From a virus: 64,000 nt of DNA. The DNA is taken from the IMG/VR virus record IMGVR_UViG_3300045988_176431, positions 96,001-160,000 of that record, one strand, 5' to 3'. The notes beneath the pieces are model-generated. The model made no database searches. It was given only the letters and a program-made list of their open reading frames with translations, and had not been told where the DNA came from. Each line of letters opens with the position of its first letter. Position 1 is the first letter of the stretch. The translations under genes and the position numbers were made by a program. This document shows, in pieces, positions 3,490-64,000 of the stretch.

Positions 3490-3512
3490 ACTTCTAAAGG
3501 AAGGTGATTATA

Positions 3513-25637: not shown

Positions 25638-25651
25638 AATATAGGTTTATT

Positions 25652-26689: not shown

Positions 26690-26699
26690 GGTTGAAAAT

Positions 26700-26942: not shown

Positions 26943-27220
26943 ATTTGGATTTATTATTGATTATTATAATGATATTGGATGTCATTATAATAGTGGGATT
27001 ATATGTGGCATTATATGTAGTTTATGTAATATTAGGTTTGAAACACGATAATTCGATTAATAAAAATCGTAAAATAGAGTCTTTAGAAGAAGAAATATTA
27101 AAAAATACTGAAAAATATAATATTGGAAAAGTGCGTTATATTATAACAGAACCTAATGGTGATGTGATAGAAACAGTTGAGATACCAAAAGAATCGAACA
27201 ATGACAAAAAAAGGAAATAA
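26939..27220 (+). CDS. small membrane protein
   Basis: 93 aa with an N-terminal TM segment. ATGA overlap with the upstream gene. RBS AAGGGAGGGG. Confidence 0.6.
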   Translation: MNLDLLLIIIMILDVIIIVGLYVALYVVYVILGLKHDNSINKNRKIESLEEEILKNTEKYNIGKVRYIITEPNGDVIETVEIPKESNNDKKRK

Positions 27221-27225
27221 CCAAT

Positions 27226-40509: not shown

Positions 40510-43500
40510 TCAAACTTTTGTTTTTTCAGATTCTATTTCTGTTTCAATAAATTCATCATCATTTCCAGTCATATAAACATTCCATCTATCATGGTCATCT
40601 CCATGATAATAAACATCAGGGTCTAATAAAAGAACATGTGATGGATCTGGATGTTTAACTCCTTCATGAATTTGCTTTACAACATTAATTGCATAAGCAG
40701 TTTTTGTATTTCTAGTTTTCTCATAATCGAAAAGATAGAAATTATTTGTATTTTCATCTTGATATAAATCGAATGTATTATTTGCATTCGTTATTTCTGG
40801 TATATCCGGGTCATATTCTTCAATATGAATACCATCTTTTGAAATATAGTATTCATATCTTGCTACACTTTTTCTTCGAACTTGATAGAAGAATATCCCA
40901 TTAGTGTAACTCATCATAATTTGATTGTAATCTTTTATAGTATCAGTATTCCAATCATAGAAATTTAATCCATTTGTAGAATACATAACTTTATCAGAAA
41001 GTACAATATAAACCATATTTTCAATGGAATGAATCATATCAAATTGAACTTCTTCTGTACAGTTCGGGTAAATATTTAGTTGAGTAATATCATAAGTTTT
41101 ATCTACTAAGTAAATTGAATTTTCTTTCTTCGCATATACTTTATCGATATTATAAAAATATGGAGAATATACCAAGTTTTGATTAATTTCTTCATCTGTT
41201 AATACTTTTGAAATAACCCAATGTTTTCCATCTTGTGTTTCAGCAACTGCCCGATTTACTCGAATTGGATTATCATTTTTATACACATCACCAAAAACAG
41301 CAAGTCTATCTTCAAAAGATAAAACTGCTTCTGGGTATAAGTGATAACGATTTGATAATTTATCTTTTACCGTTATTTTTTTACGATACCAAGATTCTGC
41401 ATCTGTACTCATATAATAATATACTGAATACAATGAGAAGATATACCATTCTCCTTTATTATAAACAACCTTGATATCTTTATTATTTGTTTTTTCTTCA
41501 ATTCCAAAATCAGTAAATGTTAATTTCTTAGAAAGACCATTGAATCCGTTATTGATAAACATCTCAATTCTATCAGGACATCCATAAGAAACAAATCGTT
41601 TACCATTGATTTCTTCATTAAATATAATTGATTCATAATCTTCCGGTTCATCATTAACATTGATTAATTCTTCATAAAGATCTCTCATAATAATATCACA
41701 TTGATCAATCGTTACTTCATGTGAGTCATACCGATAGAAGAGTTTATAAATCAATGAGAAATTGTATCGAATATCATCATGAATGAAAGTTGTTAACTCA
41801 CCAACAGCTAATTTCTTAGGAAGAAGTCTATTATAATAGAATGCTTCAAAGAAATAAGTTTCAATACTTAAATCACGTTCATATTCTTCTGGCTCTTCAC
41901 AAATATGATTATCTGGTGTTTTTCCAGTAATGTCAGTGATTACTCGGTCACGAACTTCATCTTCCATAAAAATTTCATTTAATAAATCAGAAATTGTATA
42001 GTAATTCTTAGCATCACAACCATAATATTCCCAATCCCTATCTTTTTCATAGATTTCTAAGTTGTGAAGAGAATGTACACCAGCAAGTTTAAGTTCAAAA
42101 GGACCAACTGGATAAATGTTATTTCTGCTGATTCTTCGACCGTTTAAATATACTTCAAAATAGCGAATATCAAATGGTTTATCAATGTATCCACGTAAAT
42201 CAATAGTTAGAATATTTGGATTTAAATCATCATCCGTTTTATCATATTTTAATTCTCGTTGATAATAAACTAACTTATTACGATATGGTGTCACATCAAC
42301 TGCAATATCGCTTTCTTTTTTGATAATATCAAGTAACTGAACTCTAGGATATCCGTATCTAAATTGTCCTTCATTCAAAAGTAATTCATAACGATTCTTC
42401 GAAATCAAACGACCATCACGGAATACTCGAATATATTCATTACTTCCACTATCTTTCTTAAATACATAATTTGGATCATCACCAACCTTATCAAGAACTT
42501 CATCTGTTGTATAATATATGTAAGTATCTTGAATTGGATTAGGTTCTGGTTCATCTTTATACCCAAGCGAATTAAAATGATAATAAATAGAATAGTAATC
42601 ATCTCTACCATAATAATCACCAGTTATTTGATTTTCAAATCGGTCTATAAAAAGAGTTTGATTAGATAAAGCAATATCAAAGCATGGATAATTCGTATAC
42701 TCCATTTTTTTATGAATTAAAGAAGATTCTTTTTTCAAAGAAATCTCAATCTCTTTATCTAAGAAATCATCATCAAGGCAAGTAATTCTTACTTTTGAGA
42801 CATTTGCTAATAATACTCCGTTTGTCCGATCAAGTGAACTCTTTCCTTTAGCAACTTTATCATATGAAATATATGATTGATTTCTTTTAATTATCATTGC
42901 ATCATTTGTTTCATAAACCGATATTGGAACATAAAGATTTCCTTTTTCATCTCCATAATGAATCAAACGATATAATTCATCGATTGTAATATCTTTTTCT
43001 CGAATTCTTTGACCATTAAAAGTATAATAACTTCCATCTTCTAAATAATATCCCTGTCCAACATGTAAGAAATAAATCTTTCCATCTTCAATATTATAAT
43101 TACCACCATCTGCAATGATTTGATTTACTTCTTCTACTGTGTACTTTGTTTCTGAAAGTTTTTTACCTTTACTATCGTAATGATAGAAATAATCATAAGA
43201 ATAATCTTTTGCATAGTAATCCAAATCAGTTGGATTCTTATACACAATTGTTGTATATTGTCTTTGAATCAACCCTTCAGGTAAATCAATTTCGATCAAA
43301 GTTTCAATACATTCACCAGCACTATTAAAATGAACATAATATCGATTTACAACCAAGTTATTATTAATATCAAACTCATCTTTCATGACAGGAACATAGA
43401 TATCTTCAGTTGTCGGGTCAATTAATGTAGCATATAAATAAACTTTTTCTTCCCGTTTCACATAGGCTGTAATCATCTTTTCTGTGTCTACATAATAATT

Positions 43501-45990
43501 TTCTTTATCCGATAAGAATTCTACCTGAAAACTATTTTTATCATAATATTCGTTATCATTTAACGGGTTCTTAAAATATAAATCAGATAGACTTGGTTTA
43601 ATTAATTCATTATCCGGAAATTCTAAAATGACACTATCATTTTTTTCTGTAAATGTAATTGAATATTTTTTCGTGTATGTTGGAAACGTTTCTATTTCAA
43701 CAAATGAATCTTCATTAATTAATCTTGTCGGAATATAAATATAATCTTGATAATCATATGCTTTCTGATAGTATTCTGTACATAAGAAACCATCAATAAA
43801 GATTCGACAAGAGAAATAATTTGTATCCTGTAAGTGTTCGAAAATGAATAAGTAACATGATTCTGGTAATGAACCAATATTTTGTCCTTCATATTCTGTT
43901 CGTAAACGTTTTTCCATCTGTTCCTTATCAAAATAGAAATCATATTTAATTGATGTCTTATTTTGACAAAGCACATATTTTCTTAATGCTTCTGGGTCGT
44001 CTTTAATAAATTCTTTTAATTTACGAATACGATATTCAAAAGCAGTCATTGTATTTTCATAATGCTTATCAACTGGAAGAATACCAGTTTCATCAGTAGT
44101 TCCATCTTGATAAGTACCCATCATATAATCAATATCGTCATATACATAATTTACAATATCATGAAACACGATAGCATTAAATACAGTATAAAATTGATAA
44201 GCAATCAAGGTATGTTTTTCTTCATCTGTTAAATCACCACTTAAATATAAATCATTATCTTTTAATTGATTCAAATCACCAAAGAATAATTTATAAATGG
44301 AATTAATAGATTTGATTTCTACATCATCTAACATGATATAAGCATCCCTTGTTGTAATCATTTCTTTTAACTTCTCATCATCAATTGAGAATTGATTGTC
44401 TACATCTAAATCCCCAAAATAAATAGCATTGATAACTTTTTCAATACTTAAATTATTTTCTGGATTACGACACCATTTCTCATAAAGATAATAGTAGAAG
44501 AATTTATACATATTCTCATAATGAAGATCATATTCTGGATAATAGAAGAAATAAACACGGATTTTATCATTCGGTTCAATATTTCTTATTTTATATCTGG
44601 ATTTTATTTTAACTTTTCCATCATCAATTAACTTATCCAATTCTTCTACAGTAATATCTTCTGTAAGCATATACTGATCATCTTCATCATATTTTTTACC
44701 ATCACTTGTATAGTAATAGCCATTACTCAGAATATAAATAGTTTCCTGTTCATTTAATATCTGATAATTATTCGGATAATAACAAGAAACTTTTTCATTC
44801 GAAACAATCTCCCATTCTTTATATCCATCTTCCGTGATGTTATCTTCACTTACTTTAAAGATCATTAAGTCTTCTTTTGGAATTGGCATTCCGTAGTTTG
44901 TAAATTGATTATTTTTAAAAAGCATGAAAATATTAGAAGAAGCTTTCATCTCTTCATCAATCATTTTCTCTCTACAATCAATAAATTTACCAAGAGTACC
45001 ATTATATTTCTTTAAATAACGATAGAAAATAAATCGGATTGTAAAATTACCATTGTGATTTTTAATTTGTTCTTTTGTAGTTTCATCAAGGTCTAAGATT
45101 ATTTCATCTCCGTTTACAGTAACATCAATTAAGTTAGAACCTAATTGGTTATTACCAAAATATACAACTGCAAAATAAGAACCTTTATCTTCTGAATATA
45201 ATCCAAAATTGGAGAAATCACTTCCATAAATATCTCCATAATCCGCAATCAAAGAATTCTTTATATAAGTCATACTTAAACGACCAAATGGCTTTTTTTC
45301 ACCTGCTTGTAAGGTCATCATTCCCTGATTTGTTGACATCTCAAAGAAACCGATTTCTTTTTTTAATTTTATCTTATCAATATAATTTGTATTATTGATT
45401 ACTTGTAATACATAGTTATGACCAGCATAATAGTTTTCTTTATGAGTAATATCGTATTTCTTTTCTCTCATAAAGTATTCACCCAATGGTAGGATTGCTA
45501 CAAAATGGTCATCATATACTCTTACCTTAAAATCCCGTAAAACTTTATTATCAAAGATTAAAATAGGGATACGGTAAAAAAGCTCGTTATGAGAAATCAA
45601 ATCCATATAATCAATTTCTTTCCCATAAAAGTCAACATCGCTTTGTGATACACCATTAATATTATACATTTTTGGTGCACGATATTTTTCTCTCTTATCA
45701 ACAGGTATCAATTCTACATTAAAGTCAATACAAACTCTTCGTTTGTCATCAAAATACATATCACCGTATTCTGGACTATCAGCAATCACATTATTCTCAA
45801 AGAAGTTCTTCACAGTATTTCTTGTTGTATAAGAAAATTCTTCGTATTGAATAAGATTTTTTTGTAATCGATACAGATAGGAAAAAGAATTATCAAGAGT
45901 AGCTCTTAATCCAATATCTGTTGATTTATTATCAAAGGTATTATTAGTTAGAGCTTCTGTTAAAAACTCTTTCGTTGGTTTTAACACCAT
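40510..45990 (-). CDS. giant (1826 aa) tail fibre / baseplate-like structural protein
   Basis: Uninterrupted 5.5-kb ORF, Y/N/D-rich, with internal ~45-aa repeats (..YT(V/I)EE(L/V)..(L/I)I.(D/Y)G..). RBS GGAAAGGAAGGTG. The function is inferred from size and context only. Confidence 0.6.
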   Translation of the reverse strand: MVLKPTKEFLTEALTNNTFDNKSTDIGLRATLDNSFSYLYRLQKNLIQYEEFSYTTRNTVKNFFENNVIADSPEYGDMYFDDKRRVCIDFNVELIPVDKREKYRAPKMYNINGVSQSDVDFYGKEIDYMDLISHNELFYRIPILIFDNKVLRDFKVRVYDDHFVAILPLGEYFMREKKYDITHKENYYAGHNYVLQVINNTNYIDKIKLKKEIGFFEMSTNQGMMTLQAGEKKPFGRLSMTYIKNSLIADYGDIYGSDFSNFGLYSEDKGSYFAVVYFGNNQLGSNLIDVTVNGDEIILDLDETTKEQIKNHNGNFTIRFIFYRYLKKYNGTLGKFIDCREKMIDEEMKASSNIFMLFKNNQFTNYGMPIPKEDLMIFKVSEDNITEDGYKEWEIVSNEKVSCYYPNNYQILNEQETIYILSNGYYYTSDGKKYDEDDQYMLTEDITVEELDKLIDDGKVKIKSRYKIRNIEPNDKIRVYFFYYPEYDLHYENMYKFFYYYLYEKWCRNPENNLSIEKVINAIYFGDLDVDNQFSIDDEKLKEMITTRDAYIMLDDVEIKSINSIYKLFFGDLNQLKDNDLYLSGDLTDEEKHTLIAYQFYTVFNAIVFHDIVNYVYDDIDYMMGTYQDGTTDETGILPVDKHYENTMTAFEYRIRKLKEFIKDDPEALRKYVLCQNKTSIKYDFYFDKEQMEKRLRTEYEGQNIGSLPESCYLFIFEHLQDTNYFSCRIFIDGFLCTEYYQKAYDYQDYIYIPTRLINEDSFVEIETFPTYTKKYSITFTEKNDSVILEFPDNELIKPSLSDLYFKNPLNDNEYYDKNSFQVEFLSDKENYYVDTEKMITAYVKREEKVYLYATLIDPTTEDIYVPVMKDEFDINNNLVVNRYYVHFNSAGECIETLIEIDLPEGLIQRQYTTIVYKNPTDLDYYAKDYSYDYFYHYDSKGKKLSETKYTVEEVNQIIADGGNYNIEDGKIYFLHVGQGYYLEDGSYYTFNGQRIREKDITIDELYRLIHYGDEKGNLYVPISVYETNDAMIIKRNQSYISYDKVAKGKSSLDRTNGVLLANVSKVRITCLDDDFLDKEIEISLKKESSLIHKKMEYTNYPCFDIALSNQTLFIDRFENQITGDYYGRDDYYSIYYHFNSLGYKDEPEPNPIQDTYIYYTTDEVLDKVGDDPNYVFKKDSGSNEYIRVFRDGRLISKNRYELLLNEGQFRYGYPRVQLLDIIKKESDIAVDVTPYRNKLVYYQRELKYDKTDDDLNPNILTIDLRGYIDKPFDIRYFEVYLNGRRISRNNIYPVGPFELKLAGVHSLHNLEIYEKDRDWEYYGCDAKNYYTISDLLNEIFMEDEVRDRVITDITGKTPDNHICEEPEEYERDLSIETYFFEAFYYNRLLPKKLAVGELTTFIHDDIRYNFSLIYKLFYRYDSHEVTIDQCDIIMRDLYEELINVNDEPEDYESIIFNEEINGKRFVSYGCPDRIEMFINNGFNGLSKKLTFTDFGIEEKTNNKDIKVVYNKGEWYIFSLYSVYYYMSTDAESWYRKKITVKDKLSNRYHLYPEAVLSFEDRLAVFGDVYKNDNPIRVNRAVAETQDGKHWVISKVLTDEEINQNLVYSPYFYNIDKVYAKKENSIYLVDKTYDITQLNIYPNCTEEVQFDMIHSIENMVYIVLSDKVMYSTNGLNFYDWNTDTIKDYNQIMMSYTNGIFFYQVRRKSVARYEYYISKDGIHIEEYDPDIPEITNANNTFDLYQDENTNNFYLFDYEKTRNTKTAYAINVVKQIHEGVKHPDPSHVLLLDPDVYYHGDDHDRWNVYMTGNDDEFIETEIESEKTKV

Positions 45991-48281: not shown

Positions 48282-49232
48282 TTAAATATACTCAACAGGA
48301 TATTTTCTACTATATTTATCTGTTGCTATATTTGTACTTCGGTTAATGTTAATTCCTTCTACTTTCGGTAATGGGTAATCTGGAATTACTTCATCATTGC
48401 TGTTTCTTGCTTCAAAATATACTTCGCCTGTTGATTGTTCTTCGATTGCATAAACAGTAACATCTTCTTTTTCATACTTAAGGTATTTATCAACCTCTTC
48501 ATTATTTTGAATATCGAGATTTTCTGAAATATCTTCAAAAAGGTCATCACTGTCACCATCTTCTACAATATCATATTCACCACCCATAATATTGGTGCGT
48601 CCCTCATTCAACATCTGTTTTAAGAATTTTGCAGAATATAAGTTCATATCTTCAATGTCACCATCTACAGATTTCATTTCTTTCTTTTCTTTCATAGAAA
48701 GATCTGCAATTGTTTTCTTTGTTGAAATTAAATTATTGATGATTTGCATGGATACACTACGACCGCTATTAATAGAAGCAATTAAATCTGTAGTAAATTT
48801 ACCAACACCTTTTGCTGCTGATTTATTTACTTCCATTAAGTTATATTTTTTCTGCAAGTCTTCTACAAATCGATTCTGATCAATTAAAAGATTTTTAAGA
48901 ATTGCTGTTTCATTTTCAAATTCTTTATTGTAATCTGTTAATTCACCATCTTTTTTCTTTTTCTTTTTTTTCTTCTTTTTACCATCTTCTGAATAATAAT
49001 CAAAGATACTAGTTTTTCGTTTCCCTTTTCTCTTTATTGGTTCTACTTTAAACGAAGAAATGGTAGATAACCACTCGTCTTCAGCTTCTTGTTCCAAGCG
49101 AGCTTTCTCTGCTTCTTTTTCTTTATCTTTTTTCTTTCCCTCTTTTACTGGTCGATTGGAAGATATAATCGAAGCAGGCTCCATATCTAATTCATCTAAT
49201 TCTGCAAGAATTAATTTTTTTTTCTTACCCAT
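48282..49232 (-). CDS. hypothetical protein with K9 run and acidic segments
   Basis: 316-aa ORF with RBS AAGGAAGGTG. Contains GKKKKKKKKKKDG encoded by a long A/G homopurine tract. Confidence 0.6.
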   Translation of the reverse strand: MGKKKKLILAELDELDMEPASIISSNRPVKEGKKKDKEKEAEKARLEQEAEDEWLSTISSFKVEPIKRKGKRKTSIFDYYSEDGKKKKKKKKKKDGELTDYNKEFENETAILKNLLIDQNRFVEDLQKKYNLMEVNKSAAKGVGKFTTDLIASINSGRSVSMQIINNLISTKKTIADLSMKEKKEMKSVDGDIEDMNLYSAKFLKQMLNEGRTNIMGGEYDIVEDGDSDDLFEDISENLDIQNNEEVDKYLKYEKEDVTVYAIEEQSTGEVYFEARNSNDEVIPDYPLPKVEGININRSTNIATDKYSRKYPVEYI

Positions 49233-49360
49233 CTAAGTTCACCTTCCTTTTTTACTTTTTATATCTGTGTTTTTTTAATGACTTTCTATGTATTGACAGT
49301 ATCTATATTTCTATAATATTTTTGACAAATCCTTAACGTAAAAATAGTGAGGTGAATAAA

Positions 49361-51247
49361 ATGATTGACTTTAATAATGATCATACATTACTGATTGATG
49401 TTCAGTATGTAAATGGAAATAAAAAAGAAAAACAACCGGATATGTTATATGTCATTTGGAAAGATACAAGAAAAAATGAAAAACATCTGGAAATTATCCC
49501 AGAACCTAAAATGACAATATATTTTGAAAAAGAAGAATTTAGAAATCATGATTATAATTTAAATTATCAAGAAAAAAAGAAAATGGTTCCTCTTACCTGT
49601 AAATATAAAGATATTAAATTTGCAATCGCAAATGAAATGGGTGAACCAGGAAAAAGATTTTTAGAGAATGTATTCTCAACAAAACGATATGGTGATTTAA
49701 GAGAATTAAATCGATATCCATTCGTGTTTGGACATGATTTTGATATTCGTACTTATTATCGATATCATTGGAGTAAATCCTGTCCAGAACCAAAAGAAAA
49801 GAAATTTAGTATTGGATTTTTGGATATCGAGACAGATTCTTTCGATATTGAAGGGTTCACAGATTCTGCAACTTGTCCAGTAGACTTGGTAACAATTATT
49901 GATTCAGAACATATGAAATCATATACATTAGCACTTACTGGACAAATTTATGAAGAGAAAGATTTTTCTCATATTCCAGATAGTGACCCAAATAAAAAAA
50001 GATTAATTGAAGAGGAACATGAAAGAAAAAAATGGCACGATTACAGAAATCAACAAGAAGATGAGTTGATTAATAACTTAGATAAATTAAAAGATGAACT
50101 TCATGAGATGTTTGATGAAACTTATGGAGAATTAGAATATAATTTTTATTTTTATAAGAGTGAAAAGAAGTTATTGATTCATTTATTTCAGTTGATTAAT
50201 CAATTAAAACTTGATTTTATGTTAATTTGGAATATGTCATTCGATATTCCTTATCTTATTGATCGAATGATGATCAATGGATTAGACCCAAAAGAAATTA
50301 TGTGTCATCCAGATTTTCCAGTTAAAGAGTGCCGCTTTAATAAAGATACGAGAAATTTTGAAGTTAAAAATAAATCCGATAACTTCCAATTAAGTTCTTA
50401 TACTATTTTTTATGACCAAATGATTCTATATGCAGCAATTCGTAAAGGACAAGAAGAACTTCGTTCTCATAAATTGAATTATATTGGTGAACGTGAAGTA
50501 GGTGATAAAAAATTAGATTACTCGGAAGAAGGAAATATCAAAAAACTTCCTTATGTGAATTATTGGAAATATGTTATTTACAATATTAAGGACGTTCTTC
50601 TTCAGATGGGAATTGAAAGAGCGACAGATGATATTAGTACTCTTTATGTAACATCTTATGAAAACTTAACTAGTTACAAAGATGTATTTAAACAAACCGT
50701 TGTACTTCGTAATGTACAATATAAATCTTTCTTATCAAAAGGATTGGTGCCAGGTGCAAATATTAACCAATTGGATATATTCTCAAATAAAAATAAGAAT
50801 ACTTTTGATGATGGTGAAAAAGAGGATGATGATGGAGTAAACTTTGAGGGTGCTCTTGTAGGTAATCCTTTATTAATTAACAAATTTGGGTCTGAGATTT
50901 ATGGAAAAAAGACAAATTATTTGTTTGATTTCTCAATTGATATGGATATGTCAGCATTTTATCCAAATACAATTCATGTATTAAATATTGATGCATCTAC
51001 CTTAATATTCAAAGCAATTGTTGACCCGAGACAATATGATGTAAGAGGTGGAAAAATTCCTTTTAAAGGAATTACTGATGTCCAATTAGTAAAAGAAAAT
51101 GATGATAGTTTTAAGGATGATATTGGTGGAGAAATCTTTGATAACTTCCACTCTAAGAATTATCTATCCTTAGGATATAAATTTTTAAATTTACCATCAG
51201 CAGAAGAAATGCAAAAAATATTAGAAAATGAGGTAGATAAAGGATGA
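49361..51247 (+). CDS. polB: family-B DNA polymerase, N-terminal half (3'-5' exonuclease + motif A)
   Basis: Exo I FLDIETDS, Exo II IWNMSFDIPYL, Exo III YVIYNIKDV, motif A DMDMSAFYPN. Stops before motif B. Confidence 0.8.
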   Translation: MIDFNNDHTLLIDVQYVNGNKKEKQPDMLYVIWKDTRKNEKHLEIIPEPKMTIYFEKEEFRNHDYNLNYQEKKKMVPLTCKYKDIKFAIANEMGEPGKRFLENVFSTKRYGDLRELNRYPFVFGHDFDIRTYYRYHWSKSCPEPKEKKFSIGFLDIETDSFDIEGFTDSATCPVDLVTIIDSEHMKSYTLALTGQIYEEKDFSHIPDSDPNKKRLIEEEHERKKWHDYRNQQEDELINNLDKLKDELHEMFDETYGELEYNFYFYKSEKKLLIHLFQLINQLKLDFMLIWNMSFDIPYLIDRMMINGLDPKEIMCHPDFPVKECRFNKDTRNFEVKNKSDNFQLSSYTIFYDQMILYAAIRKGQEELRSHKLNYIGEREVGDKKLDYSEEGNIKKLPYVNYWKYVIYNIKDVLLQMGIERATDDISTLYVTSYENLTSYKDVFKQTVVLRNVQYKSFLSKGLVPGANINQLDIFSNKNKNTFDDGEKEDDDGVNFEGALVGNPLLINKFGSEIYGKKTNYLFDFSIDMDMSAFYPNTIHVLNIDASTLIFKAIVDPRQYDVRGGKIPFKGITDVQLVKENDDSFKDDIGGEIFDNFHSKNYLSLGYKFLNLPSAEEMQKILENEVDKG

Positions 51248-51840
51248 AACAAAAAAGTGATAAAGACATTATAAGAGATTTATTTGTAAAACTAAAACCA
51301 ATCTTTTTTTCTGATGTATATATTTATGATTGGAAATATATTATTGAAGGAGAAGATTCTGATAAAAGAATTAGCGGAAGATACTTATGTATATTAAAAG
51401 ATAAATACGTAGATGCATTGAAAGTATTATTTCCAAATGCTAAAGTTTTATATATTGAAGATTTGATAAAGATAAAAGATGATATGGACCAATATTATCA
51501 AGAGAAAAACGATAAAAGTCTTCTATATGAATTAATCGTTAAAAAAAGATTGCAAGAGAGTGAAAAAAATAATTGGAAAAAAATAATTGAAGAGTGTGAA
51601 GGAATTGATCATATCATTTATGATTTAAATCACATTTATACAATTAAAACAAAACGAAATGATGAATGTATTGAAGTTGGGAAACCATTACTACCAACGA
51701 TAACAGCAAAAAGTATTCAAGAACTTCTATTTTGTATTAATTATGATACAGAGAGAGAACTATATGATATTAATTTCAAACATAATCATTCACATTTTGA
51801 ATTATTTATGAAATATTATGCAGTTCCTATGAAGGAATAA
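51244..51840 (+). CDS. hypothetical protein
   Basis: 198-aa ORF. ATGA overlap with the upstream gene. Confidence 0.6.
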   Translation: MKQKSDKDIIRDLFVKLKPIFFSDVYIYDWKYIIEGEDSDKRISGRYLCILKDKYVDALKVLFPNAKVLYIEDLIKIKDDMDQYYQEKNDKSLLYELIVKKRLQESEKNNWKKIIEECEGIDHIIYDLNHIYTIKTKRNDECIEVGKPLLPTITAKSIQELLFCINYDTERELYDINFKHNHSHFELFMKYYAVPMKE

Positions 51841-51886
51841 GTAAATAGAGATAGACAGATTTTCCTGTCTATCTCTATTTACTTTT
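51841..51886. terminator. bidirectional terminator
   Basis: 18-bp stem GTAAATAGAGATAGACAG / CTGTCTATCTCTATTTAC. Confidence 0.8.
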
Positions 51887-51888: not shown

Positions 51889-52746
51889 TCATGAGGTAAT
51901 ATTTCTTGAGAGATTTAATGAGTAACATCTAACTGAACGATTAGAACTTGGAGTTATAAAAACACCAGTACCCAAAGGATATCCTGTTTTGGATCCATCT
52001 TCATTACTATCGATAGATATTCCAACTGCTGAATTCCAAGCATTTGATATAAAATTTCTACCAGATTTTGTTAAATATGCTACAGGCATTATACCATATT
52101 CAGCGAATATTGGGTGTGTTAAATCAAGGAAAAAAATATTTTTTTCCGATGTATGATTATCAATTATATGAATACAAAATACTTTTTGTACATCTTGATT
52201 ACTTGAAATATCGTTCCAATGAATTTTACCGTCAGACCAATCTCCTGAATTTGCTAATTGTATAAGATATCCCTTGCTATTATCTCCTGTTACCAATTGA
52301 TCTTCATTTATTTCGCTAAATGAATCGGTTAAAGCTAATATTTTTGCAGTATGTGCTGATATTACAGCAGAATTAGAACCAGAGCTTGAGCTAGAAGATA
52401 AATCTTTTATCTTATTATTAAGAGTTGTTATCTTAGTATTTAAGTCCTGTTGTACTTGATATACCATGTTAGGAGTTACTACAGCGGAATCTCCAGGATA
52501 AGGAGTTGTAGTAGTAACTTTAGGGAGAAATGCTCCATCCTTTAAATCATAAACAGCCTTGTTAATCACCTTTAATGCATTACGTAATGTTAAAGGAGAA
52601 GAGGATTTCACGATATTATGTGAAGTACCTATAAGGTCGTCGTAACCATTTTGAGAATAAACAGCATCCATATCTGTATATGGTAAATATGTGTTTTTTT
52701 CATCATTTTCATTGTATAAGTTTAAAAAAGCACGATAAGTTGCCAT
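51889..52746 (-). CDS. fibre/receptor-binding-like protein, currently expressed form of the switch locus
   Basis: 285-aa ORF with RBS AGAAAGGAATG. Codons 39-107 lie in the inverted repeat. Has a coiled-coil-like segment, a poly-Ser linker, then a unique C-terminal domain. Confidence 0.65.
   Translation of the reverse strand: MATYRAFLNLYNENDEKNTYLPYTDMDAVYSQNGYDDLIGTSHNIVKSSSPLTLRNALKVINKAVYDLKDGAFLPKVTTTTPYPGDSAVVTPNMVYQVQQDLNTKITTLNNKIKDLSSSSSSGSNSAVISAHTAKILALTDSFSEINEDQLVTGDNSKGYLIQLANSGDWSDGKIHWNDISSNQDVQKVFCIHIIDNHTSEKNIFFLDLTHPIFAEYGIMPVAYLTKSGRNFISNAWNSAVGISIDSNEDGSKTGYPLGTGVFITPSSNRSVRCYSLNLSRNITS
52427..52632 (-). repeat. inverted repeat, left copy (206 bp, 100% identical to 52889-53094)
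   Basis: Base-by-base reverse-complement comparison by eye shows no mismatch. Identity stops abruptly at both ends. Confidence 0.9.
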
Positions 52747-52888
52747 TAATAATCATTCCTTTCTTTATAAAAATTTCCTATATTTATTATAGGATTGTTT
52801 TTATACAAAATATGATACATTTTTATTGTATTTTTTGTCCCATACTTTTAAAAAACTGTCTTTTGAAGTCTATTAATATCATAAATAC

Positions 52889-53094
52889 ATAGGTACTTCA
52901 CATAATATCGTGAAATCCTCTTCTCCTTTAACATTACGTAATGCATTAAAGGTGATTAACAAGGCTGTTTATGATTTAAAGGATGGAGCATTTCTCCCTA
53001 AAGTTACTACTACAACTCCTTATCCTGGAGATTCCGCTGTAGTAACTCCTAACATGGTATATCAAGTACAACAGGACTTAAATACTAAGATAAC
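52889..53094 (+). repeat. inverted repeat, right copy
   Basis: Encodes the same 68 aa (IGTSHNIVKSSSPLTLRNALKVINKAVYDLKDGAFLPKVTTTTPYPGDSAVVTPNMVYQVQQDLNTKIT). Confidence 0.9.
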
Positions 53095-53653
53095 TGCTAT
53101 GACCAATCGAATTTCTAAATTAGAAAGTAATGAAATAACAGAAGAAACTATTTATGATATAAATTCTAGAGTAAATTGGATATATAGTTCATTGATTAGT
53201 AAGTTACCTGAACCAATTGATGACTCTGGTGAAATTACTGAAACAGAATCATCATATGATGTTGTTCTTGGAAAAACGTCAAATATAGAAGTTAAGTATA
53301 GTGACTTATATGAACATTATAAAGGAAAAATTATTTTTGTTCATGTACGTGCTGTTCTTCAAGATCATAGTACATCTTTTAATGCGTATTATTCGTTAGA
53401 CCTTACAAATAAATTAAGCAAATTCGGACAACAAAAATTAAGGTTTTTATTTGGTACTGATAATAATTTAAATATTATATTAGATAAGGATTATTTTGAA
53501 TCAGAAACGACGATGAAAAATATCTTTAAGAATTCTACTATTGTGGGTTCTAAAAATGCTGCTACTATAACATTTAATGTAGATAATAGTGGAGAGATTT
53601 GGAAATTTCAAGTTAAAACATATAATGAAAATATTTTCAAATCAAGAATATAA
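52889..53653 (+). other. promoterless, start-less alternative C-terminal cassette
   Basis: Reading frame is open through the repeat into a different 186-aa C-terminal domain. No RBS or N-terminal 38 codons in this orientation. Has its own downstream terminator. Confidence 0.6.
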
Positions 53654-53661: not shown

Positions 53662-53698
53662 AAAATCAGACGGTGAATTATTTTCACCGTCTGATTTT
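53662..53698. terminator. bidirectional terminator
   Basis: 16-bp stem AAAATCAGACGGTGAA / TTCACCGTCTGATTTT. Confidence 0.8.
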
Positions 53699-53704: not shown

Positions 53705-54433
53705 CTATAAACTGTCAATATATAAATCATCAATAACTGATTCTAATGTAACATCTTTTTCTTTTTCTCCTTGTTTTGGAAGTTTGTCTACCCATGTCCG
53801 TAAACTGTTCATATATTTTGCTTTCCATTTATTAAAAGCATCTACAGGAAGTCCATCTGTAATTTTATAACTTGGTGGTTTTACATAGATTGCTGACTTA
53901 TCTTCATCTAAAACTTTTAATTCCCAATGTTTTGGAGCTGTAGAAAAGTCATAGTCTTTTGCAAACACAACTCTTGCAGTAGAATATAATTTTTTGTGTA
54001 AAACTCCATCACGAAACACATCCTTTTTAACTCTTCCTGATGGATGTCCTGAACAAGAATATTTCGTTACATATCCTTTCTCATTCAGTTTATCAATAAC
54101 ATCTTTAATGTCTTCATCAATATCTTTTTTTGATTCTGTAAAGATATCTTCCTCTTCATCAAAAAAGCAATATCCTTCTAATGTAGGAACTTCTTCTTCA
54201 CAATCTTTACATTCTTCTTTTTTCGTAGATAAATCTAAAGAATCAAATACTTTATTGATAGATTTTGTTAATGTATTATCTCCATCACTTTCTTTATCAA
54301 ATTCTTCATTATTAGAATCAATCATTTCTTCAATGCTTGTATCTGATAAAGAATTTTCTTTTTGGTCAGAATTTATTGGAACAACTGGAAGCATTTGTCC
54401 AACAGAAAATTCTTCCATTGCATTATTAGCCAT
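53705..54433 (-). CDS. hypothetical protein (acidic N-terminal half)
   Basis: 242-aa ORF with RBS AGAAAGGACGTG. Confidence 0.6.
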   Translation of the reverse strand: MANNAMEEFSVGQMLPVVPINSDQKENSLSDTSIEEMIDSNNEEFDKESDGDNTLTKSINKVFDSLDLSTKKEECKDCEEEVPTLEGYCFFDEEEDIFTESKKDIDEDIKDVIDKLNEKGYVTKYSCSGHPSGRVKKDVFRDGVLHKKLYSTARVVFAKDYDFSTAPKHWELKVLDEDKSAIYVKPPSYKITDGLPVDAFNKWKAKYMNSLRTWVDKLPKQGEKEKDVTLESVIDDLYIDSL

Positions 54434-54589: not shown

Positions 54590-55735
54590 ATGTCTAGTTT
54601 TGATGATATTTTAGCACAACCTCTTCCATCTCAGAGACACTTATTTGAGAGTGCTGAAGATGAGAAGAAAGAGGAAAAAGATAAGGAAGTAGATCGTCAG
54701 GCAATTGTAGATGCAATTGGAGAAGTTTTAGATGACTTTGAAGATATCGAAGCAGATACTGATGATTTCTTATCTGGTGATGAAGACAAAATCGAAATTG
54801 ATGATGCAGATGATGATTTCATTAAGAAATTAAAATCAGCATTAAAAGATTATAAAGAAATTGAGATTGAAAAAGATGATGATGAGGTTACAATTTCTTT
54901 AAAACAGGAAAGTGTAGAAGATTTCATTAATAGTCTCGATTTCTTTGGTGAAAGTGAAGAAGATAATTCTGATTTATCAGAAGATGGTGAAGAAGACGAT
55001 ATGTCGGAAGACGGAGAAGATGATAACTCTGCTGATGTCGCTGAAGGAACTGATGATATGGAAGAATTCGGTGAAGATGATGAAGCCAAAGAGTGTGGCT
55101 CCCAAGAGGAATGTGGTGATACAGATCTTGACGAAGACTTCGGTGAAGATGATGACGAAGATGAAGATGACGAAGATATCGATAATGCCTTAGATGATTT
55201 AGAAGATCAATCAGAGGATGATATTGAAACTGGTCTTATGAATGCAGATGATAATAGTGAGGAAAATGAAGACCTCACCCCTGCAGAAGACCAGAAAGCA
55301 GATGACATGTTAGCAATGGTAGCAACACCAATGTTAATTAAAGATGAATTAACAGCAGAAGAATCTGTTAACTTCTATGAAAGTGCTGATTCTGATATCG
55401 CTGTCGATGAGGGTCTTATTATGGAATCTGATTTAGATGAAATCTTTACGGAAGGCGTATTCGCTTCACCAAATCGTCCATTCAAGATGACAAAAAAAGC
55501 TCGTTTTAAACAGCTTTATGAACTTTCTGTTCAGATTGAAGCAAGAGCACATCGTGACCCTAAGATGAAACAGTTAGATCGTGCTTATAAGATTGAGCGT
55601 AAGATTAAAGCTGAACTTAGAAATAAGTATGGTACAGCTGCTAAGAAACGTGCTATGATTTACTTGAAGAGATTGATGAAATCGAAATCAGGTGTTCTGA
55701 AAAACTTAGGAAGAAAGATGTTACCTAAGAAATAA
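54590..55735 (+). CDS. extremely acidic protein with basic C-terminal helix region
   Basis: 381 aa; long D/E tracts (e.g. GEDDDEDEDDEDID); the last ~80 aa are K/R-rich. RBS AAGGAGG. Confidence 0.65.
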   Translation: MSSFDDILAQPLPSQRHLFESAEDEKKEEKDKEVDRQAIVDAIGEVLDDFEDIEADTDDFLSGDEDKIEIDDADDDFIKKLKSALKDYKEIEIEKDDDEVTISLKQESVEDFINSLDFFGESEEDNSDLSEDGEEDDMSEDGEDDNSADVAEGTDDMEEFGEDDEAKECGSQEECGDTDLDEDFGEDDDEDEDDEDIDNALDDLEDQSEDDIETGLMNADDNSEENEDLTPAEDQKADDMLAMVATPMLIKDELTAEESVNFYESADSDIAVDEGLIMESDLDEIFTEGVFASPNRPFKMTKKARFKQLYELSVQIEARAHRDPKMKQLDRAYKIERKIKAELRNKYGTAAKKRAMIYLKRLMKSKSGVLKNLGRKMLPKK

Positions 55736-56379: not shown

Positions 56380-57597
56380 ATGAGTGTTGTGATTAATGAA
56401 AAAAAGATGATGGATGATGCCTTATTTAAATATGAAGAACGCGTAAAATCTCCATTAAGTCGATTTATAGATAAATCTTTTACACCTGTAAATTATTTTC
56501 ATATCAATAATCTAGAATCTACAATGGATGCTGGATTTAATAGTCCTGAAAATGTTTTAGGTGATAATTCACCATTTCGTTTTCAAGAGATTAAAGATTT
56601 TCCAATCTATGGATTAGAGCAGATGGTAATTGCTTTACAAGATACAGATCAAGGATTGGATGGTGGATATGAAGGAGAAGCAACCATTTTACCGGGAACT
56701 CTTGTTCCTTTACAAAATGATTACTTTACTATTCCTTCATTAAAAGAACCATATATCTTTCAGATTACATCTGTTGATTATGATAGTATTATGCCAGATA
56801 ATTTTTATAAGATATCCTTTACACTAGAATATATTGACGATGAGAAGAAAGATGCTTTAAATACACAGGCAAATGAAAAATTTACTTGCGTAATGGAAAA
56901 TATTGGAACAACAGACCGTTGTTTAATTGAGGATGAATATTATAATGAACTTCAATCCATTGATTCTATCTATAATGAAATGATAAGGACATATCTTACA
57001 TTTTTCTATAATGAAAGATATAATTGCTTATTAGGGGATTTTTATCATGGACAAAAATTGTATGATCCTTTACAGGTAGAATTTATTAATAAGCATTCTT
57101 TATTTAATAAAAAGACTGATTTAAAAGCCATTATACTAAATGATATGTTTGAAGATAATCGTAGAAAAGTAAAATACGAAAAATCTATTTATCGATTTAT
57201 TGAAAAGAGAGATTGGAAGAAACTTTCTAATTTTAGTTATATTACTTTTCCGGGATCGAATAATAAACAAACATCATTTTATCATTGGGCAGATAGAAAT
57301 GTGCAGATTCTTGATATTACAAATTATATGGGACAAATGCCTCATTATGATATGATATCAGAAGACTTTTTAAATGTAATTAAATTAAATGGTCCAACTG
57401 AATCTGCTTATGCAAAATTAATTAAAAAATATGTACGAAATGAAGAACCAATCAGTTTTTCTGATATTAAGGATGATTTACTAGATGAATTGCTTCAATT
57501 AGATGATGCAAATCTTGAAATTTTCTTCTATACACCAATTATCCTATACATCATCAAAGACACTGTTTCTTCTTTTATGAAACGTAGAAAAGAATAA
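56380..57597 (+). CDS. hypothetical protein (virion-module candidate)
   Basis: 405-aa ORF with RBS AAAGGTGGTG. Confidence 0.6.
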   Translation: MSVVINEKKMMDDALFKYEERVKSPLSRFIDKSFTPVNYFHINNLESTMDAGFNSPENVLGDNSPFRFQEIKDFPIYGLEQMVIALQDTDQGLDGGYEGEATILPGTLVPLQNDYFTIPSLKEPYIFQITSVDYDSIMPDNFYKISFTLEYIDDEKKDALNTQANEKFTCVMENIGTTDRCLIEDEYYNELQSIDSIYNEMIRTYLTFFYNERYNCLLGDFYHGQKLYDPLQVEFINKHSLFNKKTDLKAIILNDMFEDNRRKVKYEKSIYRFIEKRDWKKLSNFSYITFPGSNNKQTSFYHWADRNVQILDITNYMGQMPHYDMISEDFLNVIKLNGPTESAYAKLIKKYVRNEEPISFSDIKDDLLDELLQLDDANLEIFFYTPIILYIIKDTVSSFMKRRKE

Positions 57598-59776: not shown

Positions 59777-60646
59777 TCAATTATTAAAAGAAGAATAAAA
59801 ATCTTTTACTTCATTTACAGAATTTGGATCTAATTTACAATAAATCATATTATTTCCATCTTTTATAATACCATATTCTTTGGAAACATCGAATCCTACA
59901 AATTCGTCTTTTGATAATTCAAAGGATTCCATAATAAGATTCATATTAATGTCTTTATGACCAACATTTTCAAGAATCTCTTTCAATGGTAATAATACAT
60001 CTTTCGAGTATTCTCTTACTTTATCAACTGCAGATTCTGTTACTGTTTGAATTGCTTTCATAACACCCTTTGCTTCAGATGTAGCATGTGCTTCTTTATG
60101 AGATGGATATAATACCCAATCATAAGTAATTACTTTTCTTGCAATAACAGTTGGTTTATTTTTAATCAACTGAAGACCAGCAAGAGCACGACAACTGAAA
60201 GCAGGATTTAATCCTTGAATAATCTCAGATGCAAATCCACGACCTGCTTTTGTTCCAGAAGCTGTTTCAATATGTGCATATAACATATTATCTTTAAAAA
60301 CAGGTCTCATAATTTTATGAGACCGACGACTCATTTCAATCGTATTAATACGTTCTGGTGTTAATGGTTGATTTTTGTATTTTTGTAACGGATGATCCAT
60401 CTCTCCATACCAAGCATTATCTGCTAATAATGATTGAAGTCTCTCTGTTTTAAAACATTCTTCAATATTAGAAGAAATATATTGTCGAGAATTACGGTTA
60501 ATTACTTCAAAAGATTGTAAGCATGTATCAAAACTTACAAAGAATACACCATGTTTATCAACTGCATCAACATTTTGGATTTTGTAATCTTCAGGACTTG
60601 TTTGTTCTGCGATATACATAAATCCTAAATCATTTATATCTTGCAT
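59777..60646 (-). CDS. possible prohead maturation protease (T4 gp21-like?)
   Basis: Motifs WYGEMDHP and YDWVLYPSHKEAH recall prohead serine proteases. This is recognition from memory only. ATG 60646 follows GAGGTG. Confidence 0.4.
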   Translation of the reverse strand: MQDINDLGFMYIAEQTSPEDYKIQNVDAVDKHGVFFVSFDTCLQSFEVINRNSRQYISSNIEECFKTERLQSLLADNAWYGEMDHPLQKYKNQPLTPERINTIEMSRRSHKIMRPVFKDNMLYAHIETASGTKAGRGFASEIIQGLNPAFSCRALAGLQLIKNKPTVIARKVITYDWVLYPSHKEAHATSEAKGVMKAIQTVTESAVDKVREYSKDVLLPLKEILENVGHKDINMNLIMESFELSKDEFVGFDVSKEYGIIKDGNNMIYCKLDPNSVNEVKDFYSSFNN

Positions 60647-60789
60647 TGATGTCACCTCAATTCTTTTTTCTTAATTTCTATTAAACTAATGTTTTTTCAA
60701 TAAATCATACAACTCTGGTAATTTTCATCAGATAGATTTTAGATACTCATAAGACATTTAGATAATTATTTTGATAAAGGAGAATCAAA

Positions 60790-62027: not shown

Positions 62028-62398
62028 TGACAACACAGCGGCATAAATTTTATATTTATGAAAACCTATCTAATTGCGGGGAACTATCTATAATTAATAA
62101 CTACTAACTTATGATGGTGACATACATAAGGGCAAGGGTTAACTCCTAAGGTATAGTAAAAAGGTTATTGATTGATACAATCGACGCAGCGAAGTATCTT
62201 ATATAATAATATATTAAGATATGAGTTCAACGACTATCGAAAGTATAGGTTAAGAGAAATACTTAACTGAATAAACGAGTAGAGTAGACCAGAATATCTG
62301 GGTGCATGAAATTGATGCTTTACGAAACGGTAGGGATATTATATTTGGTGGCAGAATATAATATCATGATATAGTCTATTTAATTAAAAAATTAAATG
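62028..62398 (+). ncRNA. group I intron (ORF-less, 371 nt) in the helicase gene
   Basis: P1: CCGU (62024-27) pairs with GCGG (62038-41), U.G at U62027. Hairpin CATAAAT / ATTTATG. P3: CCTATC pairs with GGTAGG. Same core with compensatory changes (CTTATG / CATAAG). Omega-G at 62398. Restores ..IPV-V-VTAQQLNR. Confidence 0.8.
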
Positions 62399-62940: not shown

Positions 62941-62976
62941 TTTTATGAATTTAATAAAGAAAGGATGAATAAAAAA

Positions 62977-63810
62977 ATGGAAAGAAAATATGAATTATTA
63001 ACAGATCAAACTAAAGAATTTCACAATGGTACGGTATATCGTATTCAAGCATTAAAAGATATAAATGATTATATTAAGAAAGGTGATATTGGAGGATGGG
63101 TATCATCTGAGAATAATCTTTCTCATGATGGAACATGTTGGATTGATAATAATGCAGTTGTTTGTGAAAAGGCACGTGTAAAAGATAACGCATATGTTTA
63201 TGATAATGCTATGATTTATGGTCATGCAATTATCTCTGGTAATGCAAAAGTATCAGGTAATGCTGATGTTCATAATTTTGCATTAGTATCTGAAAATGCA
63301 AATGTATCAGATAATGCTTTTTTAGAGGATGAATGTCATGTACACGGGAATGCACGTGTTTTTGGTACACCTATAATATGTGATAGTGCAAATATCTATG
63401 GAAATAGTGCGATTTTTGATGTAGCTACAATTTATGAAAATGCCATTGTAGAAGAATTCGGTAGTGTAAAAGAAAATGCAAGAGTTCATGGTAATTGTAG
63501 GATTACGGGCATCGCTTCAATATCTGGAGATGCAGATGTGAAGGGTGGAATTATAGATGTTGGTGATATATCAACATATGCAGTCATTCGGTCTAATAAT
63601 GATTATTTATCATTATTATCTGTTGATTATGATTTAACAGCTTATCGATCATCTGGTGATCATATTTATATCAATTATATACAATATGATGATATGCGTG
63701 CAATTTTTAAATTAGAAGAATTTGAGAAAAGGATAAAAAAATATAAACGTAAAATTAGAAAAGAATATATGTGCATCATTAAAATAATTAAGAATAATCT
63801 TAAAAAATAA
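62977..63810 (+). CDS. beta-solenoid paralog 4
   Basis: MERKYELLTDQ..RIQALK..GDIGGWVSSENNLSH..CWIDNNA, followed by GNAxVxGNAxV hexapeptide-periodic repeats. Confidence 0.7.
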   Translation: MERKYELLTDQTKEFHNGTVYRIQALKDINDYIKKGDIGGWVSSENNLSHDGTCWIDNNAVVCEKARVKDNAYVYDNAMIYGHAIISGNAKVSGNADVHNFALVSENANVSDNAFLEDECHVHGNARVFGTPIICDSANIYGNSAIFDVATIYENAIVEEFGSVKENARVHGNCRITGIASISGDADVKGGIIDVGDISTYAVIRSNNDYLSLLSVDYDLTAYRSSGDHIYINYIQYDDMRAIFKLEEFEKRIKKYKRKIRKEYMCIIKIIKNNLKK

Positions 63811-63823
63811 GGAGGATAAGAAA

Positions 63824-64000
63824 ATGGATAAGAAATATAAAATTTTACCAGAAACAAAACGTAAACTTGCAAATGGAAGAACTGTTTTCAGGATTCAAGC
63901 ATTACGGAATTTTAGTGATGTGAAAGAGGGTGATATTGGTGGTTGGATAGAATCTGAAAAGAATCTTTCACAGAAAGGAAATTGCTGGATTTATGATAAC
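63824..64000 (+). CDS. beta-solenoid paralog 5 (partial, runs off the window)
   Basis: AAGGAGG 8 nt upstream. Sequence MDKKYKILPET..RIQALRNFSDVKEGDIGGWIESEKNLSQKGNCWIYDN. Confidence 0.65.
   Translation, partial: MDKKYKILPETKRKLANGRTVFRIQALRNFSDVKEGDIGGWIESEKNLSQKGNCWIYDN

Follow-up and report, generated by a model that had tools for sequence, protein, structure and literature searches.

Switching of host range by DNA inversion is textbook biology in bacteriophages, although it is known only from temperate Mu/P1-type elements that carry an adjacent serine invertase. In the Mu G, P1 C, e14 P and p15B Min systems (invertases Gin, Cin, Pin and Min), the promoter and the constant N-terminal part of a virion host-recognition protein lie outside the invertible segment, while the alternative C-terminal parts lie inside it, and the outcome is a mixed progeny population with two host specificities (summarised for Mu in bioRxiv 10.64898/2026.02.14.705889). 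Crossover occurs at short (~26-bp), imperfectly palindromic gix/cix sites, and a Fis enhancer is needed; the C segment of P1 also has long (about 0.6-kb) inverted repeats. A promoter inversion was described for the sap (S-layer) locus of Campylobacter fetus (Dworkin & Blaser 1996-97; context in PMC3887049). There, a single promoter sits on an invertible segment of 6 kb or more between oppositely oriented homologous genes, whose shared conserved 5' coding region of about 600 bp acts as the inverted repeat and contains the start codon. Up to 8-9 cassettes take part with nested inversions, the silent copies are complete except for the expression signals, and inversion reportedly depends on general recombination (RecA) rather than on a dedicated invertase. 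In the vsa locus of Mycoplasma pulmonis and the vpma locus of M. agalactiae, the promoter and the amino-terminal coding DNA of the expression site are joined by inversion to previously silent lipoprotein genes that lack a promoter and 5' end, by means of site-specific recombinases (HvsR, Xer1) acting at short vrs/RS sites in many cassettes (PMC4534519). Finally, the lytic cyanophages A-1(L), N-1 and Elbi form genomic isomers of a ~30-kb module flanked by 400-700-bp inverted repeats; both orientations occur among close isolates regardless of phylogeny, no dedicated recombinase has been identified, and the authors raise a caveat about assembly artefacts (bioRxiv 10.64898/2026.02.14.705889).

The locus analysed here lies in a 64-kb stretch of DNA (hereafter the window) of a roughly 220-254-kb human-gut jumbo phage distantly related to PBS1, AR9 and phiR1-37. 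Its features are the following.

51840-51883, no strand assigned: terminator-like hairpin (20-bp stem) just downstream of cassette A, between the convergent 198-aa gene (plus strand) and the switch gene (minus strand).
51889-52426, minus strand: cassette A, the C-terminal 178 codons plus stop, fused in the window's state to the expressed N-terminus (285-aa product, gene 51889-52746).
52427-52632, minus strand: left arm of the perfect 206-bp inverted repeat, encoding residues 39-107 of the constant N-terminal region.
52633-52888, minus strand: the 256-bp spacer, or invertible segment, with codons 1-38 (52746-52633), the ATG (52746-52744), the RBS AGGA (52757-52760), the AR9-type late-promoter motif and upstream DNA.
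52788-52799, minus strand: the AACA-N6-TA motif, AACAATCCTATA (52799-52788), 53 nt upstream of the ATG.
52889-53094, plus strand: right arm of the perfect 206-bp inverted repeat.
53095-53653, plus strand: cassette B, 185 codons plus stop (53651-53653), in frame with the right arm and silent in the window's state, with no promoter motif, RBS or ATG of its own.
53662-53698, no strand assigned: terminator-like hairpin (16-bp stem) downstream of cassette B, shared with the convergent 242-aa gene.

The sequence-only reading had reported a perfect 206-bp inverted repeat around a 256-bp segment carrying the upstream region and the start of the gene, and this observation was confirmed exactly. The two arms are complementary at 206 of 206 positions, and identity collapses at once on both sides, since only 6 of the next 13 outer bases match and the inner extension is at random level. 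This is the only long inverted repeat in the window, and a perfect match of 206 bp cannot arise by chance. The only possible start of the right copy is a GTG at 52910, which lies inside the arm and is therefore also present in the left copy, and which has no Shine-Dalgarno sequence at normal spacing.

The AACA-N6-TA motif is the consensus of AR9 late promoters (PMC5312081). It is invariant in all relatives and is the only such motif in the spacer upstream of the ATG, and no copy faces the silent cassette. The motif AACA-N6-TR is enriched 3.7-fold upstream of window genes (Poisson P = 8e-5) and sits at -38 to -53 for neighbouring genes, whereas a generic sigma-70 promoter scan was uninformative (13 hits against 13.8 expected). 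A single putative promoter is present on the invertible segment, and the silent cassette lacks expression signals of its own.

Comparison with syntenic relatives (contigs designated L001 onwards) shows that every two-cassette relative, all of them human-gut contigs of up to 254 kb, has the same 204-206-bp perfect repeat and 256-bp spacer. Contigs that cross the whole switch occur in both states. In L006, a 99%-identical strain (61 kb; cassette A 99.1% and spacer 99.6% identical to the window), the spacer is flipped, with cassette A truncated to 240 aa and cassette B full-length at 292 aa; B is also the expressed C-terminus in the sequences P0004/6/7/36/39. L002-L005 (four assemblies of up to 221 kb, L002 being a 95% relative) are flipped as well, while L011 (91 kb) matches the window. 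When flipped, the spacer is 97.7-99.6% identical to L001, L002, L006 and L008; cassette A is 99% identical in L006, L011 and L012 and 80% identical in L002. The state does not follow relatedness, since the left flank of the window is 99.1% identical to L006 (opposite state) and 98.8% to L011 (same state). However, the orientation of a spacer between perfect 206-bp repeats cannot be fixed by k-mers shorter than 206, so that the orientation of the long contigs relies on read-pair resolution and is not direct proof; the contigs L012, L014 and L015, which end inside the second arm, were discarded as evidence on orientation. Assembly-independent proof of both orientations is given by two natural deletion variants. 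L008 lacks the left cassette and arm, the deletion joining at a 5-nt ACGAT microhomology, and its spacer reads rightwards; L010 lacks the right arm and cassette, with the junction at the 5-nt microhomology TATTT, and its spacer reads leftwards. As neither has an inverted repeat left, neither orientation is an assembler's choice, and the two are locked in opposite orientations.

The arms evolve in concert: no difference between them was found in each of 5 genomes, against 17 variable arm positions between genomes (up to 11 of 206 between two genomes), which means ongoing gene conversion. A fixed-site recombinase cannot homogenise 206 bp, whereas gene conversion can. The silent cassettes are intact ORFs at dS up to 0.43, with dN/dS of 0.5-0.66 over long distances and at least 1 between close strains. 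This is typical of host-contact domains, although values of 1 or more in close pairs are also what neutral drift of a silent copy would give. Three cassette types (A, B and C) are exchanged on a backbone about 99% identical. In strains with cassettes C and B, all long contigs have C expressed; the switch there is either strongly selected to one side or flips rarely.

The product has no recognisable relatives outside this phage clade. Searches of both forms against PHROGs and Pfam, a PDB sequence profile search and tblastn against 50,697 phage records gave no hit, and megablast of the locus against phage records found no match. The spacer pattern was not found in 185,579 species genomes, leaving no prophage or host clue. 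A HMMER profile search of 1.84 billion representatives found only the A and B types, plus one 4062-aa Ig-repeat protein. Detectable homology between A and B was considered and rejected, since hhalign of the A and B/C C-terminal domains aligned only the linker (probability 14%); the C-terminal domains are unrelated at the sequence level, as the sequence-only reading had stated. The C-terminal domain of the B form was modelled at pLDDT 72-89, whereas the N-terminus was modelled poorly and the A-form model was too poor to use (pLDDT 40.8). The best fold matches of the B-form domain are a Klebsiella phage KP1 baseplate chain, T4 gp9 (probability 0.99, E = 3e-3), baseplate-wedge proteins, and tail fibres or tailspikes; the best Foldseek matches include 1qex_A, 9f4a_LA, a phiAS4 baseplate wedge and a Vibrio phage Ceto tail fibre. 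These matches are weak (TM about 0.2-0.37, E 1e-4 to 1e-2): for the gp9-like fold the Foldseek probability is 0.96-0.99, but with E of 2-3e-3 and TM of about 0.22 over the C-terminal domain only, and the baseplate-wedge and tail-fibre matches in BFVD have E of 1e-4 to 1e-2. The size (285-292 aa against 288 aa for gp9) and the predicted helical N-terminal part followed by a beta-sandwich C-terminal domain are also comparable with T4 gp9/gp10-type baseplate-wedge proteins and tail-fibre C-terminal domains, from which the protein differs in having no sequence similarity. The tail-fibre or receptor-binding role suggested by the sequence-only reading therefore has only moderate support.

Pfam scans of 59 window ORFs, including all neighbours of the switch, found no Resolvase (PF00239) hit at E below about 8e-4, no Phage_integrase and no reverse-transcriptase (RVT) domain, which agrees, for this quarter of the genome, with the earlier remark that no invertase is nearby. 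The only HTH_7 hit belongs to an intron-borne HNH homing endonuclease (3504-4346). No gix/hix-like AAACC-NN-GGTTT core (up to 2 mismatches) lies between 52427 and 53094, and window-wide matches equal the chance expectation, although this is a weak test. A 28-nt near-palindrome in the arm (52925-52952), the only notable one there, was considered as a recombinase site and rejected, since L002 differs at 52933, 52936 and 52945. A diversity-generating retroelement, another way for a phage to vary a receptor-binding C-terminus, would need a reverse transcriptase and a template and variable repeat pair, but the only long repeat at the locus is the inverted coding repeat.

The interpretation offered by the sequence-only reading, an inversion of promoter and N-terminus between two C-terminal cassettes, is supported by the opposite spacer orientation in syntenic relatives, the two locked deletion variants, the concerted evolution of the arms and the intact silent cassettes. 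The most probable explanation, to which we assign a probability of about 0.6, is a two-state switch in which recombination between the arms flips the 256-bp segment and joins the single promoter and N-terminus to cassette A (285 aa) or to cassette B (292 aa). The recombination is most likely general homologous recombination, as that reading had suggested, or gene conversion, or replication template-switching, during phage replication. In this view, the product is probably a late virion protein of the baseplate periphery or tail-fibre class, whose constant N-terminus would anchor it in the virion and whose exchangeable C-terminal domain would contact the host, so that the switch would give a mixed progeny population with two adsorption specificities. 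The anatomy, both orientations in nature, the concerted evolution of the arms, the intactness of the silent cassettes and cassette turnover rest directly on the sequences, whereas flipping within one population and its rate, the dependence on homologous recombination, the virion location and the receptor-binding role are inferred.

Another explanation, which appears unlikely, could be that the switch logic is the same but inversion is catalysed by a dedicated site-specific recombinase, encoded elsewhere in the roughly 250-kb genome or by the host and acting at a short site inside the arms, the long identity being a by-product of coding constraint and occasional conversion. All classical phage tail-fibre inversion systems use an invertase, the long repeats of the P1 C segment offer a parallel, and the screen covered only a quarter of the genome. 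However, neither a recombinase domain in the window nor a conserved candidate site in the arms was found, and perfect identity over all 206 bp in every genome, despite the 17 positions that differ between genomes, needs gene conversion in any case. Somewhat less likely still, the locus might not be an operating switch but an old inverted partial duplication kept identical by gene conversion, in which inversion has happened only a few times in evolution and the silent cassette is mainly a reservoir or landing pad for exchanging cassettes with co-infecting relatives. This would fit the single state of the C/B strains, the dN/dS of 1 or more between close strains, the dispensability of the silent cassette, deleted in L008 and L010, and the cassette replacement on a nearly identical backbone. 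On the other hand, frequent gene conversion between inverted repeats 256 bp apart is expected to bring crossovers, and so inversions, with it; both states are seen among strains at least 99% identical; silent cassettes remain open over 185 codons in 28%-GC DNA at dS 0.43; and both deletion variants removed exactly the silent copy, which fits selection acting on whichever copy is not in use. An assembly artefact, such as a fold-back chimera or strain-variant mis-join, can be dismissed although metagenome assemblies can create hairpin-like contig ends and some short contigs here end inside the second arm, because the identical architecture with both flanks is present in more than 10 independent assemblies from different samples and assemblers (SPAdes NODE contigs, k127/k141 contigs, Logan and IMG/VR) and sequence differences between lineages are mirrored in both arms.

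It is possible, though tentative, that a virulent-type jumbo phage uses its own recombination-rich replication, with no invertase, to keep flipping a promoter plus "first exon" between two, and at population level at least three, exchangeable host-contact domains, and that the same arms also serve as landing pads for swapping cassettes between co-infecting strains. This would be the first recombinase-free gene-fusion inversion switch described in a virus. If a large, probably lytic gut phage does reach the outcome of the Mu/P1-type systems in this way, such switches are invisible to current inverton finders, which look for short repeats next to recombinases, and to annotation pipelines; short-read assemblies report an arbitrary or majority state, and gene callers report a "truncated" paralogue. 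The natural locked variants, the three cassette types and the many human-gut samples make the idea directly testable by read mapping. The locus also marks this protein as the likely host-specificity determinant of an uncultured phage clade that has no other annotation.

Compared with the described systems, the locus shares with the cyanophage isomers long inverted repeats, both orientations among close relatives regardless of phylogeny and the absence of an identified recombinase, here within the window, but the cyanophage module inversion has no gene-fusion logic and is not a promoter plus 5'-exon switch between alternative C-termini. With the Mycoplasma expression sites it shares the joining of a promoter and amino-terminal coding DNA to silent genes, but no Phage_integrase hit adjoins it in the window, and it has two cassettes in a virus rather than many in a bacterium. 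With the Mu, P1, e14 and p15B systems it shares the fusion of one constant N-terminal part to alternative C-terminal parts, in a protein whose host-recognition role is inferred here, but the arrangement is inside-out, with the promoter, ATG and 38 codons inside the segment and both cassettes outside; no serine recombinase gene was found in the window, and the arms are long coding repeats that are kept identical. The sap system of C. fetus is bacterial and chromosomal, with a much longer segment and more cassettes, whereas here the host of the switch is a virus and the segment of only 256 bp also carries the first 38 codons. Nevertheless, the single promoter on the invertible segment, the oppositely oriented cassettes whose shared 5' coding region serves as the inverted repeat, the lack of expression signals in the silent cassette and the occurrence of both orientations are found in this locus as well, and with homologous recombination as the most likely, though inferred, mechanism it is closest in logic to the sap promoter inversion, applied to a Mu/P1-style choice of a putative virion protein.

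The repeat noticed in the sequence-only reading proved to be exactly as described: the left arm is the perfect reverse complement of the right arm (206/206), and the spacer between them is 256 bp long. Similarity stops abruptly at both ends, with only 6 of the next 13 outer bases matching and the inner extension at random level, and this is the only long inverted repeat in the window. The elements of the locus are as follows.

51889..52746 (minus strand), 285-aa ORF starting at the ATG at 52746; codons 1-38 lie in the spacer, the arm encodes residues 39-107 and the left flank adds 178 aa
52427-52632, left arm of the 206-bp inverted repeat
52757-52760, AGGA preceding the ATG
52799-52788 (minus strand), AR9-type late-promoter motif in the spacer, 53 nt upstream of the ATG
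52889-53094, right arm of the repeat, continuing in frame into a different cassette of 185 codons that ends at 53653
52910, GTG inside the right arm, used as a start by ORF finders

Hairpin terminators follow both cassettes. The right copy has no ATG and no Shine-Dalgarno sequence, and the GTG at 52910, as it lies inside the arm, is also present in the left copy.

The window has a GC content of 28%, contains no tRNA genes and looks like phage DNA. Its family-B DNA polymerase (49352-51247) is 26-31% identical to those of the jumbo phages PBS1, AR9, vB_BpuM-BpSp, Staphylococcus S6/MarsHill and Yersinia phiR1-37, and related contigs of 212-258 kb come from human-gut metagenomes, including Hadza samples. 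A second, divergent family-B DNA polymerase gene (PF20286; 1786-5231) is split into 1786-3372 and 4620-5231 by an intron carrying an HNH/HTH homing-endonuclease ORF (3504-4346), and other intron-borne HNH_3 and NUMOD4 ORFs are located at 21998-22873 and 23544-24239. Repeated intergenic families of 172-nt and ~80-nt units (8 copies; 12590-14215, 3326-4521, 21821-23055, 23363-24460 and 62061-62378) are group I introns that score just below the Rfam threshold (RF00028, full-length matches at 12957-13324, 13352-13740 and 13743-14215; E 2e-9 to 1e-6). Three or four ORF-less introns lie head to tail, only ~27 nt and ~2 nt apart, between the ORFs 11783-12640 and 14237-14941, an unusual tandem arrangement that implies tiny exons. 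The window also encodes ThyX, an NAD-dependent DNA ligase with a BRCT domain, a Cpn60/GroEL-like chaperonin and a guanylate kinase; the presence of ThyX raises the question of whether this relative of AR9 and PBS1 has thymine rather than uracil in its DNA. A paralogous family of at least five genes of ~215-280 aa with hexapeptide/left-handed beta-helix repeats (Pfam Hexapep, LbH_EIF2B; 24900-27864 and 62965-64000) shares conserved 5' regions, including near-identical upstream sequences (92% between 24870-24945 and 25891-25966).

The consensus of AR9 late promoters, AACA-N6-TA/G (PMC5312081), is enriched 3.7-fold in the 100 nt upstream of the window genes (13 observed against 3.5 expected, P = 8e-5), and for the genes around the switch it sits at a consistent -38 to -53 from the start codon. 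Examples are found upstream of 40510-45990 (-), 48282-49232 (-), 53705-54433 (-), 54590-55735 (+), 56380-57597 (+) and 59777-60655 (-), suggesting that this uncultured gut phage shares the promoter specificity of the AR9 non-virion RNA polymerase despite only ~28% identity of the PolB. The spacer contains one such motif and no copy faces the silent cassette, thus the invertible piece carries a plausible late promoter that points one way only.

A protein search found only 13 clusters, all from this phage clade. Some are full-length proteins (285-294 aa, starting with MATYRAF) with one of three C-terminal types, A, B or C, while others are 'truncated' versions (240-249 aa) that start at the in-arm GTG. 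The encoding contigs showed the same locus everywhere: DNA polymerase, a 198-aa gene, the switch, a 242-aa gene, an acidic protein and a head-tail joining protein. In the window, the 242-aa neighbour (53705-54433, minus strand) has a weak TYW3-like match around an SCSGHPSGR motif (E = 7e-4, below the Pfam cut-off), and the next gene (54590-55735, plus strand) encodes an extremely acidic 381-aa protein with D/E-rich repeats and a weak PHROG 'virion structural protein' hit at its C-terminus. Every two-cassette genome has a 204-206-bp perfect repeat and a 256-bp spacer. In L002-L005 (four assemblies, up to 221 kb), the spacer matches that of the window at 250/256 positions only when reverse-complemented (71/256 otherwise), the A-type cassette being the truncated one and the B-type being full-length. 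The 61-kb contig L006 represents nearly the same strain as the window (cassette A 99.1%, arms 99.5%, spacer 99.6%, flanks 98.4-99.1%) but is in the flipped state, whereas the 91-kb contig L011 is in the state of the window, although its left flank is slightly less similar (98.8%). The state therefore does not track relatedness.

With k-mers shorter than 206, the de Bruijn graph of flank-arm-spacer-arm-flank is the same for both orientations, and only read pairs or long reads can orient the spacer. Consistent with this, several short contigs run through one arm and the spacer and then stop inside the second arm: L012 (50 nt in), L015 (108 nt in, from a k127 assembly) and L014. Their orientation is arbitrary and they were discarded as evidence. 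Long contigs crossing the whole structure must have been resolved with read pairs, and their orientations are clearly not coin flips, since all long contigs of the strains with cassettes C and B have C expressed (at least 8 distinct sequences on dozens of contigs) and all 6 contigs carrying the protein P0003 are in one state. The strongest evidence does not depend on assembly at all and comes from two natural variants that have lost the silent cassette together with its arm. In L008, the sequence just inside the 3' end of cassette A is joined to the last 18-23 nt of the left arm at a 5-nt ACGAT microhomology, and the spacer then reads rightwards into a C-type cassette. In L010, the last 31 nt of cassette B (1513-1543 of L010) are joined to the promoter end of the spacer at TATTT, and the spacer reads leftwards. 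With no repeat left these orientations are unambiguous, and they are opposite; a 5-nt junction cannot be a k-mer chimera. Both orientations therefore exist in nature, and in both variants it is the unexpressed copy that was lost.

Across six genomes the arm varies at 17 positions, with up to 11 of 206 differences between two genomes, while in each of the five two-cassette genomes the two arms differ at 0 positions. As the architecture predates the split of these lineages, independent evolution of the arms would have produced differences between them, and the arms must be homogenised continually by gene conversion, that is, by homologous recombination acting on exactly these sequences. A recombinase that cuts at one fixed site would exchange, but not homogenise, the DNA on either side of the site. 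Recombination between inverted repeats 256 bp apart yields inversion whenever it resolves as a crossover, and for this reason inversion driven by homologous recombination (or by replication template-switching) is favoured here. In addition, no Resolvase, Phage_integrase or reverse-transcriptase domain is present in 59 ORFs of the window, no gix/hix-like core occurs in the arms, and the one palindrome in the arm is not conserved, although a recombinase encoded in the ~190 kb outside the window remains possible.

Cassettes B and C are homologous, while A is not detectably related to them beyond the linker. All silent cassettes are intact. The dN/dS ratio is 0.5-0.66 at dS 0.3-0.9 and at least 1 between close strains; for example, there are 17.3 nonsynonymous against 0.7 synonymous differences between the B cassette of the window and that of the related contig L007. 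This pattern is typical of host-contact domains, although the close-pair values are also compatible with drift. The cassette type changes on a backbone that is about 99% identical: A is replaced by C on the left in L007 and in another related contig, L001, and in L008 a C-type cassette on the right is followed by decayed B remnants, two fragments (3788-3858 and 4874-5081 of L008) that are 72-89% identical and persist downstream of its stop codon. The locus is therefore a recombination hot spot, and these remnants, together with the microhomology deletions in L008 and L010, point to cassette replacement by insertion followed by decay. The family is confined to this clade; a profile search of 1.84 billion representatives returned only A, B and one protein of 4062 aa (P0014). 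The latter, the only relative of the B-type C-terminal domain outside this clade, is a giant protein of Big_13/Big_7 Ig-like repeats that matches residues 150-216 of the B form seven times (E = 2.7e-12), which hints that part of the cassette is an adhesin-like Ig module.

No sequence-family hits were found for the product. The AlphaFold model of the B form is confident only for the C-terminal beta-sandwich (residues ~145-288, pLDDT 72-89), the N-terminal part is predicted to be helical at low confidence, and no usable model of the A form was obtained. The best Foldseek matches in the PDB are a baseplate chain of Klebsiella phage KP1 and T4 gp9, the 288-aa long-tail-fibre connector, followed by tailspikes and tail fibres, and BFVD gives baseplate-wedge, gp9+10 and tail-fibre proteins at E 1e-4 to 1e-2. 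Taken together with the late-promoter motif, the position next to virion genes and the pattern of diversification, this supports a baseplate-peripheral or tail-fibre-like host-contact protein, although that assignment is inference.

The observation made from the sequence alone is thus confirmed in full. Its interpretation as a switch, in which the flipping of the spacer would join the same promoter and N-terminus to either C-terminal domain, is supported by the comparative evidence. The structure of the locus, the existence of both orientations in nature, the concerted evolution of the arms, the intact silent cassettes and the turnover of cassettes are shown, while the operation of the locus as a switch within one population, the dependence of inversion on homologous recombination and the host-contact role of the protein are inferred. 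That inversion has occurred repeatedly at this locus is very likely, and the probability that it operates as a population-level switch can be put at roughly 0.7-0.8. That it is driven by homologous recombination, and that the product is a host-contact virion protein, are each somewhat more likely than not.

In its inferred outcome, this locus works like the G inversion of Mu or the C inversion of P1, but it lacks the features of that family that were tested: no invertase is adjacent, no short crossover sites were found and the layout is inside-out. Recombinase-less inversion between long repeats in lytic phages has just been reported for cyanophage modules of ~30 kb, without gene-fusion logic, and literature searches found no phage example of a promoter/5'-exon flip. 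In its logic, by which the promoter and the N-terminal coding DNA would move to a silent gene, the locus resembles the vsa/vpma systems of Mycoplasma (PMC4534519). In its inferred mechanism and in its layout, it is closest to the sap locus of Campylobacter fetus, where a single promoter lies on an invertible segment between opposed homologues that share a long conserved 5' region, and inversion depends on RecA.
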